IMG/VR virus record: IMGVR_UViG_3300028569_001145
Coordinates: 1 to 64,000 of that record
Length of the DNA stretch: 64,000 nt
Origin: a virus
Strand: one strand, 5' to 3'
The position numbers and the translations under genes were made by a program. Below are positions 2,990 to 30,646 of this stretch, one piece after another. The notes beneath the pieces are model-generated. The model worked only from the letters and a program-made list of their open reading frames with translations, was not told the DNA's origin and made no database searches. Every line of letters begins with the position of its first letter. Within the stretch, counting starts at the first letter, position 1.

Positions 2990-5326
2990 ATGGTTATCGA
3001 AAAAAAGTACTACCTTGTTGATGATAAAGAGAAAGTAAATCTACTCATCCAACATATTAACGAAAAAGAAATAATTGCTTACGATACAGAAACTACTACT
3101 CTTAACCCACGTAAAGGAAAGATAGTAGGATTTTCAGTATCCGGAGAAGAAGGAGTAGGCTTTTATATGCCTACTATGGTTTGGAATGTAGAATCAGAAT
3201 CCTTAGAAGAATGTACCATTGAAGGTGTTGGTTGCAATAAAATAGCTAAGAAACTTATTGCAATGCTGGTTGGAAAGAAGCTTGTGATGCATAATGCTTC
3301 ATTTGACTGCCGGTATACTCAGAACTTTTACGGGGTTAACTTACTACCCTCTCTATGGGTTGATACTGCCCTTCTGGTTCATACAGTGAAAGAAGAAGGA
3401 GCATTTGGATATGGAGCTAGTCCTTTTGGATTAAAAACAATTGCAATCATGATTCAAGATAAGATTGGATTGAATGTGGCAGAAGCAGCCAACCAAGAAC
3501 AATTAAACCTAAAAGCTTCTATTAAAGAGAATGGCGGGGCAATCACTAAAGATAATTTTGAAATTTATAAAGCAGATATTAACCTCTTAAGTGAGTATGC
3601 TGCTGCAGATACAGACTTAACCTTGCGTATCTGTAATTACTTTCTACCGGTTTTAAAAGGGGAAGGCCTGGAGAAATTCTTTTTTGAAGAGGAGGTTATG
3701 CCCCTTTATAGAGAAGTAACTGTGCCGATGGAGATCAAAGGGATAGCCCTTGATATACCTCTGATAGAAAAGACTAGGGATGATATTATGGCCGATCAAG
3801 AACGTTACCGTAAGTTAGTTCTAGAAGAGCTTTTAAAACTACCTAAGGTTAAGGAATGGGTCATTGATACTGCCTTAAAAGAGTTTCCTCCTGGACATAA
3901 AGGCAAATGGGCACAGACTTTGGTTGAGCTTTACGGCCTACCTATGCCTAAGACTGCCCGGGGAGTATCTTTGAAAGAAGCTAATATTTTAGCTCTAGAA
4001 GAACATCCGGTAAGAGAGTACCTACTTACAGCAGACTTGAGCCATTTACAAGAAGAAGTTGTGGTTAGAGTATCTATGAAGCTTTGGAAAGACTCTAACG
4101 ACGGGGAGTTTATTAATATACAATCTAAAAAGCAGTTGGGTGAGATTGCATTTAACTACTTGAAAGAGAAGCCGTTATCTAAAACTGCTAAAGGACAGCC
4201 TCAATTTGACGACGATGTCATTCAAGTTTTATCAGACAAATACGAGTGGTGCAAGAACCTACGTATCTACAATAAGCTTTTAAAGATTAAATCTACCTAC
4301 ATAGATCGATTTTACCAAGCAGCCGAAGATGGACGCTTCTACCCGTACTTTAAACAGAATGGAACTGTGTCTGGAAGATACGGTTCAGACCTACAACAGT
4401 TACCTAAGCCTAAAGAGGATGGGGAAGCTGATCCTCTAATCGTTAAGTATAACAACGAAATTAGAGCATTTTTTATTGCAGATGATGGATATTTATTTAT
4501 TGATAATGACTTTGAGTCTCTTGAACCTCACATCTTTGCCTCTATTTCAAATGATGCAAACCTTCAAGAGATCTTCAACCAAGGACACGATTTCTACTCT
4601 ACTGTCGCTATTCGAACTGAAAAGCTAGACGAGCAGAGAGACAAGTACCCCGACGGAGTTTCAGCCGATAAAAAGGCTCCTAACTTCCTAAAGAAGCTTG
4701 ATGCACCTAAAAGGAACCAAGCAAAAGCATATTCCTTAGGAGTTGCTTATGGAATGTCTCCTTATGCATTAGCAATGTCTTTAGGAGTATCTCAAGAAGA
4801 AGGAAACAGGCTTCACCAAGGTTACATGGAAGGATTTCCTGGGGTTGCTCAATGGGTTGAAAACTCAAGAGCATTGTTTAAAAAGCACGGTTACATTAGA
4901 AACCAAGTAGGACGAATCAGACACTTAGAAAGAGGGAAAGTTGTTTACGACAAATTCGGGGAAAAGATTATGGACTGGAAGTTTAGAAACGAACTAGCTA
5001 AAGAAGCAGGAGGAGAGCAAGTAAAGCAATACTACGGTGATTATAAAAACGCACTTAATAACTGCTTAAACTTCCAGATTCAATCACTAGCAGCTTCTGT
5101 AGTTAACCGAGCAGCTTTGAACATCAACAGGGAGTTTCAAGCCCGGGGATGGGATGGGCAGGTTATAGCCCAGATACATGACCAGTTGATTATTGGCATT
5201 AAGGAAGAATTAGCCGAAGAAGCTAAATGGGTTGTAAAAGACATTATGGAGAATACAACCAAACTTCCAGGAGTGACTTTAAAAGCACCGCCAGAAATTT
5301 CTAAAAATTTCCGCGATGGACATTAA
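2990..5326 (+). CDS. polA: Family A DNA polymerase with 3'-5' exonuclease and no 5'-3' exonuclease domain
   Basis: ExoI DTET, HNASFD, YAAAD; TVSGR; motif A DFESLE; motif B RNQAKAYSLGVAYG; motif C IHDQL. Confidence 0.95.
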   Translation: MVIEKKYYLVDDKEKVNLLIQHINEKEIIAYDTETTTLNPRKGKIVGFSVSGEEGVGFYMPTMVWNVESESLEECTIEGVGCNKIAKKLIAMLVGKKLVMHNASFDCRYTQNFYGVNLLPSLWVDTALLVHTVKEEGAFGYGASPFGLKTIAIMIQDKIGLNVAEAANQEQLNLKASIKENGGAITKDNFEIYKADINLLSEYAAADTDLTLRICNYFLPVLKGEGLEKFFFEEEVMPLYREVTVPMEIKGIALDIPLIEKTRDDIMADQERYRKLVLEELLKLPKVKEWVIDTALKEFPPGHKGKWAQTLVELYGLPMPKTARGVSLKEANILALEEHPVREYLLTADLSHLQEEVVVRVSMKLWKDSNDGEFINIQSKKQLGEIAFNYLKEKPLSKTAKGQPQFDDDVIQVLSDKYEWCKNLRIYNKLLKIKSTYIDRFYQAAEDGRFYPYFKQNGTVSGRYGSDLQQLPKPKEDGEADPLIVKYNNEIRAFFIADDGYLFIDNDFESLEPHIFASISNDANLQEIFNQGHDFYSTVAIRTEKLDEQRDKYPDGVSADKKAPNFLKKLDAPKRNQAKAYSLGVAYGMSPYALAMSLGVSQEEGNRLHQGYMEGFPGVAQWVENSRALFKKHGYIRNQVGRIRHLERGKVVYDKFGEKIMDWKFRNELAKEAGGEQVKQYYGDYKNALNNCLNFQIQSLAASVVNRAALNINREFQARGWDGQVIAQIHDQLIIGIKEELAEEAKWVVKDIMENTTKLPGVTLKAPPEISKNFRDGH

Positions 5327-8555: not shown

Positions 8556-9459
8556 ACTAGCCGAAATAGACTATAAGACTCAAAAGAACATTTCTTTTTC
8601 ACAACTGCAGATGTATTACCAGTGTCCCCATCAGTGGGACCTGGTATACAGGCAGGGTCATAAAGTCTACCGGCCAACCATTCACACGGTTTTTGGAACA
8701 TCGTTTCACGAAACAGTTCAAAACTGGTTGACTGTTATGTATGAAACTACTGCAGTGGAGGCAGATAAGATTGACCTGCATGAGTATCTTTATGAAAAAT
8801 TAAAGACAAACTACGTTTTAGAGTTAGGTAAGAATGAAAATAATCATTTTACTACCAAAGAAGAACTAGCCGAATTCCTAGAAGACGGAATAAAGATTCT
8901 AGATTTTTTAAGAAAGAATAGAAAAGCTTATTTTAACATCAAAGGATGGCATCTAGTCGGAATTGAAATACCAATCCTATTAACACCTAATTCAGATTAC
9001 CCGAATACCCTCTATAAAGGATTCCTTGATTTAGTTCTTTATAATGACAATACAGAATCATTCTACATTTACGATATCAAGACCTCAACCAGAGGATGGA
9101 CTGATAAAGAGAAAAAGGATGAGGTTAAGCCCATGCAGTTAATATTCTATAAGGAATATTTTAGCCAACAGTTTGGAGTTCCAACCGACAAAATAAATGT
9201 GGAATTTTTTATTGTTAAGAGGAAGATTTGGGAAGAGTCAGAGTTTGTTCAAAAGAGGGTGCAGCAATGGGTACCCCCCTCCGGCCCAATTAAGACTAAG
9301 AAGGCATTAGGGGTTATAGATGAGTTTATCAAAACCTGTTTTAACCTTGATGGCACAATGATAGACAAGGTGCATGATAAGAAGCCTTCGGACACAGCTT
9401 GTCGTTGGTGTGCATTCAAAGACCGGCCGGATTTATGTGACCGGGGGCAGGGAAAATAA
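8509..9459 (+). CDS. PD-(D/E)XK nuclease (RecB/Cas4-like)
   Basis: SFSQL...CP, GTSFH, GFLDL...YDIKT, QL.FY, C-terminal CRWC...C. Confidence 0.85.
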   Translation: MSKKIPAVVKQIQKHKLAEIDYKTQKNISFSQLQMYYQCPHQWDLVYRQGHKVYRPTIHTVFGTSFHETVQNWLTVMYETTAVEADKIDLHEYLYEKLKTNYVLELGKNENNHFTTKEELAEFLEDGIKILDFLRKNRKAYFNIKGWHLVGIEIPILLTPNSDYPNTLYKGFLDLVLYNDNTESFYIYDIKTSTRGWTDKEKKDEVKPMQLIFYKEYFSQQFGVPTDKINVEFFIVKRKIWEESEFVQKRVQQWVPPSGPIKTKKALGVIDEFIKTCFNLDGTMIDKVHDKKPSDTACRWCAFKDRPDLCDRGQGK

Positions 9460-9512
9460 TCGAAATTTAGACCGCATTTTTCTACCCCTATATATTTATA
9501 TGTATAGACATT

Positions 9513-9704
9513 ATGAGTACAGTTACTAAAAAAAAGCCCACAGTCCTAACCTCGGTGAAGGTCGACTCGGACAAGTTCAATGACTTTAAAGTAGAATGTG
9601 TGAGAGATAAATTCACACTAACACAATTGGTGAACAAATGCATGGACCTTTATTTGAATGATGAGTCATTCAAGAACGCTATTTTAAATTACAAAGAAGG
9701 TTAA
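9513..9704 (+). CDS. Small ribbon-helix-helix-like DNA-binding protein
   Basis: TSVKVD strand followed by two helices; TATTTATA promoter upstream. Confidence 0.55.
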   Translation: MSTVTKKKPTVLTSVKVDSDKFNDFKVECVRDKFTLTQLVNKCMDLYLNDESFKNAILNYKEG

Positions 9705-9749
9705 AAAGAATTTGCCTTCGGACAAAAATTAGTTATATTTAAGTAAATT

Positions 9750-11186
9750 ATGAAACAAGGTTATATACCAAAAGACAAAAGAAAGAAAATCTTATTGCTG
9801 TGTGATGACATTAGAGTTCATTCCGGCATCGCGCACATGGGTAGGGAATTGGTTATGAACACCGCCCACCATTACAACTGGGTTAATCTAGGAGGTGCAG
9901 TTAAACATCCGGAGGCCGGTCAAAGGTTTGACCTGTCTGAGGATACCAACAAACAGGCTCAGATTGAAGATTCGTCAGTGATGTTATACCCGACCGATGG
10001 GTACGGGAATCCAGATATCATCCGTCAGTTAATTCAGATGGAAAAACCAGATGCTTTATTTTTGATTACCGACCCTAGATATTGGGTTTGGTTATTCCAA
10101 ATGGAAAATGAAATTAGAAAGCATTGCCCGATTATATATTTGAATATTTGGGATGATTATCCGGCACCGTTGTACAATGAAACATTCTATGAATCTTGTG
10201 ATGCATTGTTAGGTATTTCAAAACAAACCGTCAATATCAATAAATTGGTGTTGGGTTCAAAGTCCGAAGGTAAACTTATTGAGTATGTACCTCACGGTGT
10301 GAATGAGAAGAACTTTCGTCCTTTGTCTAAGGAAGAAAAATCGTCTAGTGAATTTTTGGAGTTTAAAAATCAAATATTCCAAGGAAAGGAATTTGAGTTT
10401 GTATTATTTTTCAATTCAAGAAATATTCGCCGGAAACAGATTCCGGATGCAATCCTGGCCTTTAGGCATTTTGTTGATAGACTTCCTAAGGAACAGGCTA
10501 AGAAATGTCTCTTCCTTCTTCATACCCAACCGGTGGATGAACATGGAACTGATCTACCGGCTGTAATAGACCTACTATGTCCGGAGGAGTATTGTAATGT
10601 ATTCTTTACCGGTGGTATGTACGACCCCCAAAGAATGAATTGGTTATATAATCTAGCCGATTGCCAGATTCTTTTAACCTCGAACGAAGGGTGGGGTTTA
10701 AGTTTGACCGAAGCCTTGCTTGCTGGTCTGCCTATAATTGCCAATGTTACTGGAGGGATGCAAGACCAAATGCGTTTTGTTAAGGATGGTAAATGGGTTG
10801 ACTTTGATGAGGACTTCCCGTCCAATCATCGCGGTACCATTAAGGAACATGGTGAATGGGCATTCCCAGTATTCCCAACATCTCGTTCATTAGTAGGTTC
10901 AGTACCAACACCTTACATCTTTGATGATAGATGTGAACCAGAGGATGCAGCCGATCAAATTGAGGCAGTTTACAACCTAGGTCCTGAGGAAAGACAGAGA
11001 AGAGGTAATACCGGACGTGAGTGGGCTTTAGGTGATGAGGCTGGATTTACATCTGAAAAAATGGGTAACCGTGTAATTGAATACGTTGATGAATTATTTG
11101 ATACTTGGGAACCAAGAGAAAAATATGAATTCATTCTAGCAGGTGATTATAAGAAAAAAGTTTTAAACCATAAATTAATATATTAA
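9750..11186 (+). CDS. GT4-like (GT-B) glycosyltransferase
   Basis: PHGV, RNIRRK, EGWGLSLTEA...GLPII motif. Confidence 0.9.
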   Translation: MKQGYIPKDKRKKILLLCDDIRVHSGIAHMGRELVMNTAHHYNWVNLGGAVKHPEAGQRFDLSEDTNKQAQIEDSSVMLYPTDGYGNPDIIRQLIQMEKPDALFLITDPRYWVWLFQMENEIRKHCPIIYLNIWDDYPAPLYNETFYESCDALLGISKQTVNINKLVLGSKSEGKLIEYVPHGVNEKNFRPLSKEEKSSSEFLEFKNQIFQGKEFEFVLFFNSRNIRRKQIPDAILAFRHFVDRLPKEQAKKCLFLLHTQPVDEHGTDLPAVIDLLCPEEYCNVFFTGGMYDPQRMNWLYNLADCQILLTSNEGWGLSLTEALLAGLPIIANVTGGMQDQMRFVKDGKWVDFDEDFPSNHRGTIKEHGEWAFPVFPTSRSLVGSVPTPYIFDDRCEPEDAADQIEAVYNLGPEERQRRGNTGREWALGDEAGFTSEKMGNRVIEYVDELFDTWEPREKYEFILAGDYKKKVLNHKLIY

Positions 11187-11230
11187 TGAAACCGTTATTT
11201 GTAATAAGTTGTCCTATTGATACCTACTCT
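11186..11230 (+). pseudogene. Truncated duplicate 5' end (MKPLFVISCPIDTYS) of the glycosyltransferase at 11885
   Basis: Matches KPLFVMSAPVDTYS of the downstream gene; TAATG-coupled to the upstream gene. Confidence 0.85.
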
Positions 11231-11268
11231 ATAAGGATTTTAGTAGGGCAACTATTTATAAATAAAGT

Positions 11269-11892
11269 ATGGGATGTAAAACAGGTAACTACGTATCTTG
11301 TGCTTATTGCACAAAGGAGGTTTATAAATCTAAATGGGAACTACGCAAAGCCACCAGGTACTTCTGCAGCAGAGAATGTGCAAGCAGGGGCCATAGTTTA
11401 TTTTTAACAAAACATGAATACACAAAAATACTATGTCCAGAATGCGGTTCTGAATTTCAGCAACACTGGAAAGGAGCAAAAAAATACTGCTCTACAAAAT
11501 GTGCAGCACGGCACAGCCTTTCTGTTATTAATGCAAAAGAGCCAAAAAAGAGAGGAACTAAACCTGAAAAATTATTTGCAGAGAAGTTGGAGGAGTGGGG
11601 GATTGCTTTTATTTTTCAAAAAAGTTTACCGTGGAAAAAAGGCTGGAAGAAATGGTTTGATTTTTACATCCCGGAATGGAATATGCTCATTGAAGTAGAC
11701 GGTGAATATTGGCATGGCAAAGACATAAAGACTAAAGACTTAAATAAACAACAATGGAATACTCGAAAAAACGACAGGTTAAAAAGCTACCTTGCAAAAA
11801 AACAAAACTACAAACTGCTCCGGGTATGGAGCTTAGAAGTACAAAAACTAACATATGAACAATTAAAAACTTACAATGCAGAATATGAATAA
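11269..11892 (+). CDS. Putative homing endonuclease: Zn-ribbon repeats plus a Vsr/DUF559-like nuclease domain
   Basis: CxxC...FCSxxC repeats; FDFY...IEVDGEYWH...D...LRVW. Confidence 0.8.
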   Translation: MGCKTGNYVSCAYCTKEVYKSKWELRKATRYFCSRECASRGHSLFLTKHEYTKILCPECGSEFQQHWKGAKKYCSTKCAARHSLSVINAKEPKKRGTKPEKLFAEKLEEWGIAFIFQKSLPWKKGWKKWFDFYIPEWNMLIEVDGEYWHGKDIKTKDLNKQQWNTRKNDRLKSYLAKKQNYKLLRVWSLEVQKLTYEQLKTYNAEYE

Positions 11893-13201
11893 CAAACCCT
11901 TGTTTGTGATGAGCGCGCCTGTGGATACCTACTCAGGGTATGGTGCCCGTTCTAGAGATTTAGCCAAAGCAATCATCCAAACAGATAAGTATGATGTGAA
12001 AATCATACCTCAGAGATGGGGTAATACTCCTTGGAATTTTATTCAAGACCATCAGGAAAAATGGGGCTTTTTAAAAGACCATTTCCTACAACAGCAGTTA
12101 CCAAAACAGCCTGAAATTTGGGCTCAAGTAACTATCCCAAATGAATTTCAGCCAGTAGGTAAATTTAATATCGGCTTTACTGCCGGTATTGAATCTACAG
12201 TATGTGCTGCTGATTGGATTGATGGAATGAATAGAATGAATGTAAACTTTGTTTCTTCTGAACATTCTAAAAAGGTATTTCAAGAATCTTCATTTGAACA
12301 ACGTGATCAAAATACCCAACAGTTGATTCGTACTATTAAGCTTGAAAAACCAGTTGAAGTGTTATTTGAAGGAGCAGACCTGGATGTATACAAGGCATTA
12401 GAATCATCAACAGAATCAGTTAAAACCTTTGATAAACTTGCTAGCATTAAGGAAGACTTTGCTTACCTATTTGTTGGCCATTGGTTAAATGGGGATTTAG
12501 GGGAGGATAGAAAGAATGTTGGATTATTAATTAAAGCCTTCTACGAAACGTTTAAAAATAAGATGAAAAAACCTGCCCTAATACTAAAAGTATCTATGGG
12601 CGGTACCTCTTATTTAGATAGAGAAGAAATGTTGAAACGAATTGCCTTGATTAAAAAGACAGTTAATTCAACTAACCTACCTAACATTTATTTGTTACAT
12701 GGTGAATTCTCTGATGAGGAAATGAACTTACTCTATAATCACCCTAAAGTAAAAGCAATGGTTTCTTTAACTAAAGGTGAAGGATTTGGTAGACCATTAT
12801 TGGAATTTACTTTAAGTAAAAAACCAATCCTAACTACAGGATGGTCAGGCCATATGGATTTTCTAGATCCAGAATATACTACTCTGCTTTCAGGTCAATT
12901 AACTAATGTTCATCCAAGTGCTGCTAACGACTGGTTGTTAAAAGAAGCTCAATGGTTCTCTCCTGATCACGGCCAGGTGGGAAACTCACTAAAAGAACTA
13001 TTTGAAGAATATAAAAAATATATTCCCTTAGCACGTAAACAAGCTCATAAGTCTAAGACTGATTTTTCATTCGATAAGATGAAAGAATTACTAGAAGGGA
13101 GACTAGCAGCATTAGTACCTGAATTTCCTAAAGAGGTTAAACTTCAACTACCTACTCTAAAGAAAATCGAATTACCTAAATTAAAAAAAGTAAATGGATA
13201 A
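11885..13201 (+). CDS. GT4-like glycosyltransferase
   Basis: SGYG N-terminal loop, RKNV, GEGFGRPLLE, TGWSGH. Confidence 0.9.
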   Translation: MNNKPLFVMSAPVDTYSGYGARSRDLAKAIIQTDKYDVKIIPQRWGNTPWNFIQDHQEKWGFLKDHFLQQQLPKQPEIWAQVTIPNEFQPVGKFNIGFTAGIESTVCAADWIDGMNRMNVNFVSSEHSKKVFQESSFEQRDQNTQQLIRTIKLEKPVEVLFEGADLDVYKALESSTESVKTFDKLASIKEDFAYLFVGHWLNGDLGEDRKNVGLLIKAFYETFKNKMKKPALILKVSMGGTSYLDREEMLKRIALIKKTVNSTNLPNIYLLHGEFSDEEMNLLYNHPKVKAMVSLTKGEGFGRPLLEFTLSKKPILTTGWSGHMDFLDPEYTTLLSGQLTNVHPSAANDWLLKEAQWFSPDHGQVGNSLKELFEEYKKYIPLARKQAHKSKTDFSFDKMKELLEGRLAALVPEFPKEVKLQLPTLKKIELPKLKKVNG

Positions 13202-13634
13202 TCTAACTAAATGCAATAGATGCGGAGGGGATGCCTGCTACACCCAGCAGGTGACCCCCCAGCTTAAAACCTACTGGTGCTACGGTTGTGGTTTTATTTC
13301 TAACGATCTTATGAAAGAAGGCGAAGAGTATTTTGCACAACAGACCTCTAACTTACCAGATCTTTACTTAGATCTTCTTTATAAGGATTCTGAAGACCGT
13401 TATTGGATGCCTTCTACGGTTAATATTGAAGATAAAGGAATGATCTTTGCCCAAGGTGTTAACCCGCAAGACTGGCGATGGACAGCAGTTAAAGCAGTTG
13501 AACGATTTGAGGAAGATTTAAAAAAGAATCCAAAAAATAAAGCCAAGTACAAAATGGATATGGTCAATCAAAAACATTTCCATGAAAAAGATTACATGGA
13601 TGCTTTAGATCATATTGGCATCTTTAAAAAATAG
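13194..13634 (+). CDS. Zn-ribbon hypothetical protein
   Basis: CNRC...C...CYGC. Confidence 0.7.
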   Translation: MDNLTKCNRCGGDACYTQQVTPQLKTYWCYGCGFISNDLMKEGEEYFAQQTSNLPDLYLDLLYKDSEDRYWMPSTVNIEDKGMIFAQGVNPQDWRWTAVKAVERFEEDLKKNPKNKAKYKMDMVNQKHFHEKDYMDALDHIGIFKK

Positions 13635-13650
13635 TTCGTATATTTACTTT

Positions 13651-14277
13651 ATGAAAATCAGTTATGCTGTTACTGTCTGTAATGAAGAGGTAGAACTTCA
13701 AAACTTATTATACCATCTCCTCAGGTTTAAAAAGCCTCAAGATGAAATAGTAATCTTATTTGATTCTAAGAATGGGAGTAAAGGAGTAGAAGAATACCTC
13801 CGATCACATTCAGTAACAGCAGATGCTGGCTTCACCTGGCACTCAGGTGAATTCGATGGTCATTTTGCTGACTGGAAGAATAAACTTAATACCTTATGCT
13901 CAGGTGATTTTATCTTCCAGATTGATGCTGATGAATACGTGATCGGTGAATGCATTGATTTAATGCATGAAATAATAAAAGCTAACCCCGAAGTTGATCT
14001 GTACTATGTTCCTAGAATTAATACCGTAAGCGGCATCACTCAGGAGCATATACAGAAATGGGGGTGGAGGGTTGACGATGGAAAGGTTAACTGGCCTGAT
14101 TATCAGACTAGACTTTATAGAAACTCTTCAGACATTAAATGGAAAAATAAAGTTCACGAAGTAATTGAAGGCTTTAAACAATACTCAGTATTACCAGCAG
14201 TGGATGAGCTGGCTTTAATCCACCACAAGACAATTGAAAGACAAGAAAAACAAAACGCTTACTACACTACATTATGA
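13651..14277 (+). CDS. GT2 glycosyltransferase
   Basis: ISYAVTVCNE, IDADE, WPDYQTRLY, VHE; ATG at 13651 follows a TTCGTATATTTA promoter. Confidence 0.85.
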   Translation: MKISYAVTVCNEEVELQNLLYHLLRFKKPQDEIVILFDSKNGSKGVEEYLRSHSVTADAGFTWHSGEFDGHFADWKNKLNTLCSGDFIFQIDADEYVIGECIDLMHEIIKANPEVDLYYVPRINTVSGITQEHIQKWGWRVDDGKVNWPDYQTRLYRNSSDIKWKNKVHEVIEGFKQYSVLPAVDELALIHHKTIERQEKQNAYYTTL

Positions 14278-14900
14278 TAGAAAATTATAAAATAACTCAG
14301 GACGGTGTCATTGAACAGATTCACAAAGAACTTTTTAACTACGACCAAGAATATTCAGATAGTAGGTACTCTGTCTTTTCAGACAGGGGTAATATACTTA
14401 ATTTGAGACTCGGTTACGTTATAGGATCGATTGGGAGAATTCCAACCTCTTTACTGGATGTTGGGTACGGCAATGGAGATTTCTTGGAAAGTTGCCGTAA
14501 TCTAATACCTACCCTGTACGGTAATGATATTCAACCAGCATACCCTTTGCAGGAAGGAATTACTTTTGTAGAGAATATAACAGATATAGAAGTGGATGTA
14601 GTTACTTTTTTTGATAGTTTAGAGCATTTCCACAACATAGAATGGGTTAAGGATTTAAAATGTAGTTATGTGGTTATTAGTTTACCATGGTGCACTAATG
14701 GAGAAGATGATGCATGGTTTACTGCTTGGAAGCATAGAAAGCCGAATGAACACCTGTATCATTTTAATGAACATAGCCTACAAGCATTCATGAAGAGACA
14801 AGGTTACGAATTACTAAACTACTGTAATATTGAAGATAAAGTTAAGATTGATGCAAACTTAACCCCTAACATACTTACGGCGTGTTTTAAGAAGATATGA
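14274..14900 (+). CDS. Class I SAM-dependent methyltransferase
   Basis: LDVGYGNGDF, FDSLEH, EHLYHF. Confidence 0.85.
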   Translation: MIENYKITQDGVIEQIHKELFNYDQEYSDSRYSVFSDRGNILNLRLGYVIGSIGRIPTSLLDVGYGNGDFLESCRNLIPTLYGNDIQPAYPLQEGITFVENITDIEVDVVTFFDSLEHFHNIEWVKDLKCSYVVISLPWCTNGEDDAWFTAWKHRKPNEHLYHFNEHSLQAFMKRQGYELLNYCNIEDKVKIDANLTPNILTACFKKI

Positions 14901-22465: not shown

Positions 22466-23144
22466 AATATCGGACACAGGATACAGTAAAGTAAAACCAG
22501 CTTACATAAACAACGAAGCTTGTTTAAAAAATGCTATTAAAATATTTCCCTGGCAAGAACATGACTGGTCTATCATTGCTGATAATATTTCGGAAGAGAC
22601 TAATGATATGATTCAAAAATATATTCCTAGGGGCCATATTAATTATGTTTCTGTTGGACATGGTGCTGGTACTTTTAATCTAGCTTTGGATGAAGCACTA
22701 CAAGAACCAGATTGGCAGGTTGTTTATTTTTTAGAGAATGATTATCTACATAAAACAAACTCAGATAAAATTATTCTAGAAGGTTTGGAATTAGGGGCAT
22801 CGTTCGTATCTTTATACGACCATCCAGATAAGTACATACCCCCAAGTCAAGGAGGTAATCCATACTGTGAAGGAGGGGCGGAAGATACTCGAGTTTATTT
22901 AACAGAATCAACTCATTGGAAAATAACAAACTCAACAACAATGACATTTGCAAGCACAGTTTCAACCCTAGTAAGAACAGAAAAAACTCTCCGGAAGTAC
23001 ACTCAAGGAAGTTACCCGGAAGATTTTAAAATGTTCTTAGATTTAAGGGAACAAGGTGAGCTGTTAATAAGCTCGATCCCAGGATATTCAACTCATGGAG
23101 AGACGGCTTGGTTAACACCCTTAACAGATTGGAGTCAAATATGA
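22449..23144 (+). CDS. GT2-like glycosyltransferase
   Basis: YFLENDYLH, LYDHPD, STTMTF, STH. Confidence 0.7.
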   Translation: MKIIYRISDTGYSKVKPAYINNEACLKNAIKIFPWQEHDWSIIADNISEETNDMIQKYIPRGHINYVSVGHGAGTFNLALDEALQEPDWQVVYFLENDYLHKTNSDKIILEGLELGASFVSLYDHPDKYIPPSQGGNPYCEGGAEDTRVYLTESTHWKITNSTTMTFASTVSTLVRTEKTLRKYTQGSYPEDFKMFLDLREQGELLISSIPGYSTHGETAWLTPLTDWSQI

Positions 23145-23164
23145 TCTCAGTAATAATACCAACC
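23141..23164 (+). pseudogene. Truncated duplicate 5' end (MISVIIPT) of the GT2 at 23893
   Basis: ATGATCTCAGTAATAATACCAACC versus downstream MSISVIIPT; ATGA-coupled to the upstream gene. Confidence 0.8.
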
Positions 23165-23195
23165 CCGGGTCTATTTATAATAAACATAAAAAGGC

Positions 23196-23891
23196 ATGGA
23201 AAAAATAACAGGTATATACAAAATCACAAACCCGCAAGGAAAGATCTACATAGGGCAAAGCATTAACATAAACAGACGCTGGTATGCATATCAAAATTTA
23301 GAAAGAAAAAGCATGGGATTAAAATTGTACAACAGCTTAAATAAATACGGGCCGGAGAATCACATCTTTGAAATTATAAAAGTATGTGAAGTAGCAGAAC
23401 TGCGAGAGCAAGAAACCTACTATAAACAGCTTTATGATAGTGTTTTAACCGGGTTAAATACTAAACCAGTAGATGACCGGTATGGTCCTCATAGTCAAGC
23501 AACAAAGGAGTTAATCTCTAAAAAATGCAAAGATGTAGCAAAAAAAAGAATTTATACAAAGGAGTGGAAGGCTAATATGAAACAGAAAAAAACAGGGCAT
23601 CCTTGTTACAAATCAAAAGAACGGAGTCAAAAGATAGGAGCTGCACATAAAGGCAAAGTAATACCTCAGGAAGTAAAAGATAAAATATACACCGAATCTT
23701 GGCGAATTAAAAACAAGGAAGCACATAAACACCAAATGAAACAAGTAGCACAAATAGATAAAACAGGTAAAGTAGTTGCAGTATGGGAAAGCATCACAGA
23801 GGCAAAAGCTCAGACAGGTATAAAAGGTATAAGTAATGTATTAACCGGCTTAGCAAAAACTGCAGGAAGCTACACATGGAAGGTTATTTAA
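23196..23891 (+). CDS. GIY-YIG homing endonuclease with NUMOD3/NUMOD1-like domains
   Basis: GIYKIT...YIGQS...R; C-terminal WESITEA...KTAGSYTW. Confidence 0.9.
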   Translation: MEKITGIYKITNPQGKIYIGQSININRRWYAYQNLERKSMGLKLYNSLNKYGPENHIFEIIKVCEVAELREQETYYKQLYDSVLTGLNTKPVDDRYGPHSQATKELISKKCKDVAKKRIYTKEWKANMKQKKTGHPCYKSKERSQKIGAAHKGKVIPQEVKDKIYTESWRIKNKEAHKHQMKQVAQIDKTGKVVAVWESITEAKAQTGIKGISNVLTGLAKTAGSYTWKVI

Positions 23892-23892
23892 T

Positions 23893-24669
23893 ATGAGCAT
23901 AAGTGTAATCATACCTACATACAAAGAGCCTGAAGTGCTTGATGTTTGTCTAAAATCAGCCATCACCGGTCAGAAGTTAAATAACCAGATTATAGTAGTG
24001 GTTGATGGGTTCTACGAGGTTAATAGAGAGGTTCTTGAGAAATATAAAGACTCTATACAGATCTTAGTTTTGGAAGAGAATGCCGGGCTTTGTCGGGCAA
24101 CTAACTTAGGAGTCTATAATGCTGAGTTTGATAAGGTTCTAATTGTAAATGATGATAATGTATTCCCAGAGGCATGGGATCAAGTATTACTTGAGCAGTA
24201 TAAACCAGGAAGTGTATTAGCACCTAACCAAATAGAACCCACCCCTTCTATGTTCAGACAATTTCACATTAGAGATTTAGGTAGAGATCCTAAGACGTTT
24301 AACATAAACGATTTTTGGGAATATGATTTTAGTATTGCTGAAGATAAGACAGACGAGACTGGATCAACATTACCAATCTTCATGTCTAAAAAAGACTACT
24401 TGAGGGTAGGAGGTTGGGATGAATCTTACCCCGGTGCTTGGGTAGTAGATTGGGACTTCTTTCTTAAATGTGAATTATCAGGAATGAAGATGCTTAGAAC
24501 TTATGCTTGTCACTTCTATCATTTCGTTTCAGTAGGCACAGAAGCTACTCCGGAAGAAAAACAAAACAAAGCAATTAAAGAACAAGCATGTCATGAATAT
24601 TTTAGATACAAATGGGGGCAGTATGCTCAACATAACACTGCCAATAATTCAAAATTAATCAATTTATAA
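23893..24669 (+). CDS. GT2 glycosyltransferase
   Basis: SVIIPTY, VVVDG, NLG, VNDD, VGGWDE. Confidence 0.9.
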   Translation: MSISVIIPTYKEPEVLDVCLKSAITGQKLNNQIIVVVDGFYEVNREVLEKYKDSIQILVLEENAGLCRATNLGVYNAEFDKVLIVNDDNVFPEAWDQVLLEQYKPGSVLAPNQIEPTPSMFRQFHIRDLGRDPKTFNINDFWEYDFSIAEDKTDETGSTLPIFMSKKDYLRVGGWDESYPGAWVVDWDFFLKCELSGMKMLRTYACHFYHFVSVGTEATPEEKQNKAIKEQACHEYFRYKWGQYAQHNTANNSKLINL

Positions 24670-29860: not shown

Positions 29861-30646
29861 ATGTTAGTCTATAAAATAGTTGATTTACAAACGGGAAACG
29901 GGTATGTAGGAAAAACAACAAAAACTGTGGAGGAAAGGTTTAAGGAACACTTAAAACTATTGCATCTAAAGAGGCACCATAATCCATGGCTGCAAAACAT
30001 ATATAATAAAGATCCGAACCGGATTAGCACTATTGAAGTATTGGAGGATGGTATATCTTGTTTAGAGTTTTTAAATGAACGAGAATGTTACTGGATAGAA
30101 CAACAAGGTTCTTTCAATATAGCTAGAGGAGGAACTGGCGGAGATACTTTATCAAAACATCCAGATAAGAAACGTATTATGAAAGCGAGGTTAGAAAAGT
30201 ACCCAATGAAAAAAGGAAAAGATAATCCGACATACATACATTTAACAAAAGAGCAGGAAGAGTTATTAGAAGAGGTGTGGAATAACTTAGAGATACAAGC
30301 TATAAAATTCCTTGCCGAAAAAACAAATATTTCAAGGCATAAGTGTAAACAGTACTTGCTTGAAAAAGGATATACAATACCTAATAGGCACGAAGTACAA
30401 AAGAAAATGTTTAAAAAAGGCCTTATAAAAGGGTCTCGGGACCCTAATCTTACAGATGAGCAAATAGAGTACGTAAAAAAAGCTTACGTCGAAGACTGGA
30501 AGTCCTGTAAACAAATAGGTGTAGAATTAGGCTTCAAAGGTGAAGAAACAGCTCTAAGGATTATTAAAGAAGCAGGTCTGTTAAGGAGTACCGGAGAGTG
30601 GACTACTTATAAGAATTTGAACAGAGGCAAGAAAAAAGAAGTATAA
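29861..30646 (+). CDS. GIY-YIG homing endonuclease
   Basis: VYKI...YVGKT...RF..H, E..WI, NIARGGTGGD; HTH-like C-terminus. Confidence 0.85.
   Translation: MLVYKIVDLQTGNGYVGKTTKTVEERFKEHLKLLHLKRHHNPWLQNIYNKDPNRISTIEVLEDGISCLEFLNERECYWIEQQGSFNIARGGTGGDTLSKHPDKKRIMKARLEKYPMKKGKDNPTYIHLTKEQEELLEEVWNNLEIQAIKFLAEKTNISRHKCKQYLLEKGYTIPNRHEVQKKMFKKGLIKGSRDPNLTDEQIEYVKKAYVEDWKSCKQIGVELGFKGEETALRIIKEAGLLRSTGEWTTYKNLNRGKKKEV

Follow-up and report, generated by a model that had tools for sequence, protein, structure and literature searches.

How can a free-standing nuclease gene settle in a phage locus that leaves no room between its genes? This question is raised by a 64,000-nucleotide (nt) stretch of viral DNA (hereafter, the window), which is the first 64 kb of the 104.7-kb IMG/VR virus record IMGVR_UViG_3300028569_001145 and carries every gene on the + strand; the features described below lie on the same strand. 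Two glycosyltransferase genes are concerned, upGT upstream and dnGT downstream. In element-free phages the two genes overlap (TAATG), and a free-standing nuclease gene therefore has no gap between them to occupy. A nuclease gene is nevertheless present at this junction, and we give a probability of about 0.8 to the reading that a free-standing homing-endonuclease cassette sits inside the coding sequence of dnGT and not between the genes. The cassette would get round the absent intergenic space by bringing a new start together with the codons that it displaces.

Anatomy of the locus and its element-free relatives

The upGT gene (9750-11186; GT4-like, 478 aa; Pfam Glycos_transf_1, E 4e-11) is the conserved neighbor in all related loci. 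Its stop codon overlaps an ATG at 11186, which opens MKPLFVISCPIDTYS, an orphan stub of 15 codons (11186-11230) corresponding to the native 5' end of dnGT, and the frame continues out of register to 11407. This coupling of the stub to the upstream gene was found as described in the initial annotation. The closest empty loci, L003 and L004, read through from the TAATG start without interruption, and comparison with them delimited an inserted cassette of 705 nt (11230-11934). The cassette lies after codon 15 of dnGT, not in an intergenic position, and the stub is left behind it. It consists of a leader, a promoter-like motif, the nuclease gene (11269-11892), a replacement start with 13 codons, and the right copy of an 11-nt direct repeat. 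The replacement 5' end (11885-11934) begins with a new ATG that overlaps the nuclease stop by 8 nt (ATGAATAA), an arrangement also recognized earlier, and opens MNNKPLFVMSAPVDTYSGYG. From this ATG an intact dnGT of 438 aa (11885-13201) can be read, with 94% amino acid identity to L003/L004 over residues 4-438. The nuclease is a separate ORF in a different frame from dnGT, with no fusion between the two. The stub and the new start have KPLFV.S.P.DTYS in common, and the exact 11-mer GATACCTACTC occurs at 11219-11229 (left copy) and again at 11924; three occurrences were found in the window against 0.05 expected. Because the cassette supplies its own ATG together with a diverged version of the 13 displaced codons, full-length dnGT can be made from the new start without splicing. 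Its predicted N-terminus is MNNKPLFVMSAPV, and the native 5' end would remain as a dead stub.

We compared the locus with its relatives in viral contigs. A scan for dnGT relatives returned 80 loci, and a second set of 80 related loci was also compared. The nuclease was absent from all 80 loci of the first set, where upGT joins dnGT directly in most cases, and from 77 of the 80 loci of the second set, where the glycosyltransferase genes are mostly joined directly. As relatives without the nuclease join both genes, the window carries an insertion at the conserved D-T-Y-S / G-Y-G codons, the site named in the initial annotation.

The two copies of the dnGT 5' end differ in their relation to the empty alleles. 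Over the compared stretch the stub is identical to L003/L004 at 30/30 nt. No mismatch separates the window from L004 over 11085-11229; divergence starts at 11230, so that 11229 is the last base in common with the empty allele on the left. The functional 5' copy matches L003/L004 at only 20/30 nt over the divergent tract (11894-11923), and 10 differences in 30 nt have a probability of ~5e-8 against the local background of 3.6% mismatches. The prediction that the stub would be closer to element-free alleles than the new start was thus borne out. The earlier description of heavily changed synonymous codons was correct as to the recoding, though not as to its silence, since the 10 nucleotide differences leave the amino acid unchanged in four of the altered codons and replace it in three others (I>M, C>A, I>V). 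The recoded tract has a GC content of 53% versus 27% in the empty allele, in a genome of 36% GC. It is followed by 23 identical nt (11924-11946), which include the right repeat copy, and then by three clustered mismatches (11947, 11948 and 11950) that, judging from the alignment, probably mark the end of a donor tract. The source of the recoded tract was not located, because no allele among ~175 loci exceeded 21/30 nt, and an exact 29-mer search of viral contigs for the recoded 5' end gave no match.

The insertion is polymorphic at a fixed site, with L003 and L004 empty between flanks of ~96-98% identity. Excluding the insert, the block of this high identity to L004 spans 10860-12940 (no strand assigned) and is centered on the insertion site. 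Outside it, identity falls to ~60-85% per 30-nt bin, with 72.8% for 13650-14293. Because of this difference in identity, the block looks like a localized exchange tract, produced by recombination or co-conversion. In a second occupied/empty pair, L083 and L103 (92% amino acid identity), the differences at the 5' end were mainly clustered around the insertion point. A third pair, L087 and L125, had an identity of only 69%, too low for comparison.

The nuclease, its recurrence and the decay of the stub

To characterize the nuclease, we used profile and structure comparisons. The 207-aa protein has two Cys4 FCS-like zinc fingers followed by a catalytic domain, in agreement with the Vsr-like zinc-finger nuclease of the initial annotation. 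It scored 26.1 bits against Pfam Vsr, just below the 27-bit cutoff. A profile of 28 homologues searched against the PDB matched the catalytic domain to the homing endonuclease I-Bth0305I (3r3p) with an E-value of 3.2e-5 and also matched FCS/MYM-type zinc fingers, weakly. The AlphaFold model had a pLDDT of 87, and the best PDB matches in Foldseek were 3r3p (TM 0.70 on target) and E. coli Vsr (1cw0). Across the 28 homologues, D131, E142, D144, H149 and D169 are invariant, as are eight Cys residues arranged as two CxxC...CxxxC modules, and Y147-W148 occupy the intercalating positions. Profile alignment suggests that the invariant acidic and His residues are equivalent to Vsr D51/H69/D97 plus a family-specific Glu. 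These features fit membership in the Vsr-like "EDxHD" family, members of which occur in introns, in split-intein "fractured genes" and as free-standing genes such as Hef (PMC2677866, PMC3239194), and the protein is predicted to be catalytically active. Proteins 86% (P0001) and 76% (P0002) identical to the nuclease exist; a viral-contig scan using P0001 yielded no closer relative of the cassette. Elsewhere in the same virus record, beyond the window, a 480-aa open frame contains a stretch (G000:C1:86427-86639) that weakly resembles the catalytic region (E 5.6e-4, 35% identity).

The promoter-like element of the initial annotation was also recovered. The motif CTATTTATA, with TATAAATA overlapping it at 11257-11264, occupies 11252-11264 and lies 5 nt upstream of the nuclease start codon. 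The window contains 11 copies of CTATTTATA, where 2.3 would be expected, and all are on the + strand (1177, 2529, 11252, 23171, 26362, 29848, 31853, 42861, 44438, 47631 and 63855). Most copies stand 4-18 nt before the starts of open reading frames (ORFs), among them four nuclease genes and several other genes, and the motif is kept upstream of homologous nucleases. CTATTTATA is a plausible phage promoter that the cassette brings with it, and the late timing given to it earlier is presumptive. Two more putative homing endonuclease genes lie behind CTATTTATA at 1190-1999 and 29861-30646, one with a NUMOD3 motif and the other with a GIY-YIG domain. A 14-bp RNA/DNA stem (11207-11251; -20.2 kcal/mol, z -2.0) is formed by the stub end (AGTTGTCCTATTGA) and the cassette leader and ends just before the promoter motif. 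This stem is not conserved in L083 or L087, where stems cover the nuclease start codon instead; RNA hairpins at the nuclease start were set aside as a conserved feature, as they showed no conservation across lineages.

We further examined whether the same junction is occupied elsewhere. Homologous nucleases, 40-65% identical to that of the window, occupy it in at least five other phage lineages, lying between upGT and dnGT homologues in L083/L084/L085, L087/L088/L091, L090 and L092. The flanking genes of these occupied loci are only ~43-59% identical to those of the window. All close carriers show coupling between the nuclease stop and the dnGT start, and the cassette is rare and patchy, being present in under ~5% of loci. 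Decayed relics of the stub were found against the same left junction in three lineages and four loci (L083/L085, L087 and L090). They precede the left end of the cassette, TC|TATAAGGA or a close variant, as a decayed copy of the ..CPIDTYS codons. In L083 and L085 the stub is without its ATG and about seven of its codons; in L087 it keeps TAATG and meets a stop after three codons, and in L090 it stops after four. When the relics were scored against all other 25-mers of their own locus, with the empty relative L103 as the reference for L083, the empirical p-values were ~6e-4 (L087), 7e-3 (L083) and 0.04 (L090). Since decayed stubs adjoin intact downstream genes, the ATG in use must be the downstream one. 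When viral contigs were scanned for the leader pattern (TATAAGGA..CTATTTATAA), 89 matches were obtained, of which only those on the two already-known contigs had an adjacent homologous nuclease; the remaining matches look like chance.

The same stub-plus-replacement layout is present a second time in the window. At 23143-23925, a GIY-YIG nuclease (231 aa) lies behind CTATTTATA, with an 8-codon stub (MISVIIPT) on one side and, on the other, a GT2 gene that starts anew as MSISVIIPT... (MSISVIIPTYKE). The 17 viral relatives found all have the gene without interruption.

Other insertions were observed around the two glycosyltransferase genes, and the upGT/dnGT junction is an insertion hot spot in the relatives. 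It holds a 165-aa ORF in L085 (1929-2500), the 3' end of which recurs in the gaps of L108 and L119, and L085 also carries a duplicated copy of the upGT 3' end. Gaps of ~510-550 nt are present at the junction in L108, L119-L121 and L125, a 192-aa ORF with an HNH-type nuclease in L064 (2662-3971), and a 243-aa ORF in L018 (3254-3985). Extra DNA was also found between dnGT and the next gene in L083 (3252-3953), L006 (5299-6576) and L060 (5305-6158). The L083 insert is a 233-aa ORF with a GIY-YIG-like start, which suggests a second nuclease insertion site on the 3' side of dnGT.

Proposed mechanism and competing explanations

We propose that the nuclease would cleave element-free alleles at or near the insertion point, near TACTC|AGGG, and that an element-bearing genome would then serve as the repair template for the break. 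Recipient sequence to the left of the cut would persist as the stub, and the cassette would be copied in together with a short donor tract on the right, the presumed direction of transfer being from occupied to empty allele. Such a route agrees with the intact stub, with the recoded tract and with the mismatch cluster at 11947-11950. The decay state of the stub, which is pristine in the window and degenerate in older carriers, would then record the age of the invasion. I-Bth0305I cleaves next to the point of its own insertion and recognizes a pseudopalindrome centered on the cut (PMC3239194). A pseudopalindrome, ATACC-N7-GGTAT, is present at 11926-11942 and in the empty site of L004 (~4033-4049), its center one base from the junction. 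A dimeric EDxHD enzyme might cleave at this core, which is only a lead because L103 lacks the symmetry.

Several points weigh against this reading. Both the activity of the nuclease and its cleavage of this site are predictions from sequence. The occupied allele retains the empty-site sequence over the 23 nt across the insertion point (11924-11946), so that any immunity must rest on flanking changes, and the cleavage resistance attributed to the new 5' end is presumptive. No donor with a closely related cassette was found, the nucleases of the nearest DNA-level relatives being only 62-65% identical. The divergence of the nuclease between lineages (~62%) is similar to that of its flanks (~50-59%), which also fits long vertical residence.

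Such residence is the basis of the rival that survives best, according to which the cassette is old, immobile and vertically inherited and L003 and L004 arose from an ancestor like the window by precise deletion between the 11-nt repeats, rejoining the stub to the gene. In principle this could have happened, as recombination of the repeats at 11219 and 11924 gives exactly the L004 junction and the nuclease is always found at this one locus. We consider it unlikely, because an unselected stub would have had to stay wild-type at 30/30 nt, yet it decayed in other carriers. Moreover, the clustered mismatches past the repeat are unexpected from simple repeat deletion, and the empty arrangement is in the overwhelming majority across deep divergence.

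It is considerably less probable that the nuclease is retained for a benefit to the phage, such as exclusion of the markers of co-infecting relatives or regulation of the glycosyltransferase pair, with the duplicated 5' end as a by-product of tandem duplication. The coupling of dnGT to the nuclease stop in close carriers and the conservation of the active site across deep divergence would agree with such a role. Rarity, decaying stubs and polymorphism within nearly identical flanks are, on the other hand, the usual signature of a selfish element, and marker exclusion is itself an intronless-homing phenotype.

Least probable of all is a group I intron that encodes the nuclease and splices the stub, as exon 1, to the gene body: although removal of 11230-11934 from the RNA would restore the wild-type frame exactly and group I introns do house EDxHD nucleases such as I-Bth0305I (PMC3239194), an Rfam scan of 9000-14000 (E<=1) found no intron family and one chance-level match to an unrelated RNA, only 38 nt of non-coding insert precede the nuclease ORF, a complete in-frame start and N-terminus are present downstream, and splicing is disfavored by the stubs without an ATG (L083/L085) or with early stops (L087/L090) beside intact downstream genes. 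On these grounds splicing is unlikely, as the initial annotation had assumed, and its interpretation of a homing element that restores the interrupted gene largely holds.

Relation to known systems and significance

The nearest parallel to the proposed cassette lies outside phages. Fungal mitochondrial mORFs carry a foreign gene terminus, as in atp6 of Allomyces macrogynus and atp6, atp9, cox2 and nad3 of Glomus; they introduce a foreign C-terminus, and the displaced native C-terminus is orphaned (PMC3630166), and related gene-fragment duplications are known in Tremella (PMC7315562). In both systems the endonuclease ORF moves, or in the window would move, as a unit with a diverged version of the gene end that it displaces; the orphaned native end is much closer to the sequence of close relatives than the inserted copy is, and splicing is not needed. 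The window cassette differs as a mirror image in a phage rather than an organelle, replacing the 5' end and not the 3' end. Furthermore, its nuclease is Vsr-like, in contrast to the LAGLIDADG or GIY-YIG enzymes of the mORFs, and is unfused, overlapping the new start by a few nucleotides, with a promoter-like motif included.

A comparison with phage elements is also instructive. SegF, SegG, SegE and MobE of T4, together with Hef, are free-standing intronless-homing endonucleases. Intronless homing by such phage enzymes (PMC2988022) resembles the present case in the free-standing nuclease with its own promoter-like motif beside a presumed target gene, in the presence/absence polymorphism and in a high-identity flanking tract consistent with co-conversion. 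The known elements are intergenic or divide a gene into two polypeptides that both function, whereas the window insertion lies inside an ORF, with a dead stub and a replacement start and N-terminus. The nuclease is like I-Bth0305I and the EDxHD family in profile, fold and conserved acidic and His residues (PMC2677866, PMC3239194); I-Bth0305I, however, is intron-encoded with NUMOD DNA-binding repeats, while the window nuclease is free-standing with N-terminal FCS-like Cys4 zinc fingers. Genes-in-pieces or fractured genes, such as Aeh1 nrdA/mobE, T4 39/60/mobA and split-intein loci with Vsr-like nucleases (PMC2988022, PMC2677866), likewise have a free-standing nuclease gene inside a conserved coding region of a phage gene. 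There, both halves are functional through subunit assembly or trans-splicing, whereas in the window one side is discarded and replaced. The phage reviews and surveys consulted deal with free-standing nucleases in intergenic positions and with the splitting of genes but do not describe this layout (PMC2988022, PMC10448857), and no phage precedent for the stub-plus-replacement layout was found in the literature searched, the coverage of which was incomplete and is not proof of absence.

If the reading holds, a selfish nuclease could occupy a conserved coding target in a third way, by replacing the displaced gene end, besides using self-splicing carriers or splitting the gene. On balance, and with considerable reserve, we lean towards regarding coding-sequence invasion by a promoter, a nuclease and target-altered first codons as a general, unrecognized strategy of homing endonucleases in tightly packed phage genomes. 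The stub would be regenerated from the recipient at each invasion and then decay, dating the event, and two unrelated nuclease families, Vsr-like and GIY-YIG, would have converged on this layout in one genome. As such a cassette carries the replacement codons, it could land in a conserved motif without an intron or intein. For the uncharacterized EDxHD branch, the D-T-Y-S/G-Y-G codons of a phage glycosyltransferase would be a candidate target. The layout would also explain short orphan ORFs and duplicated gene starts that annotation pipelines would miscall, and stub decay would allow homing events to be dated, and their direction read, from sequence alone. More broadly, the finding is relevant to the role of nuclease genes in shaping the boundaries of phage genome mosaics (PMC10448857).

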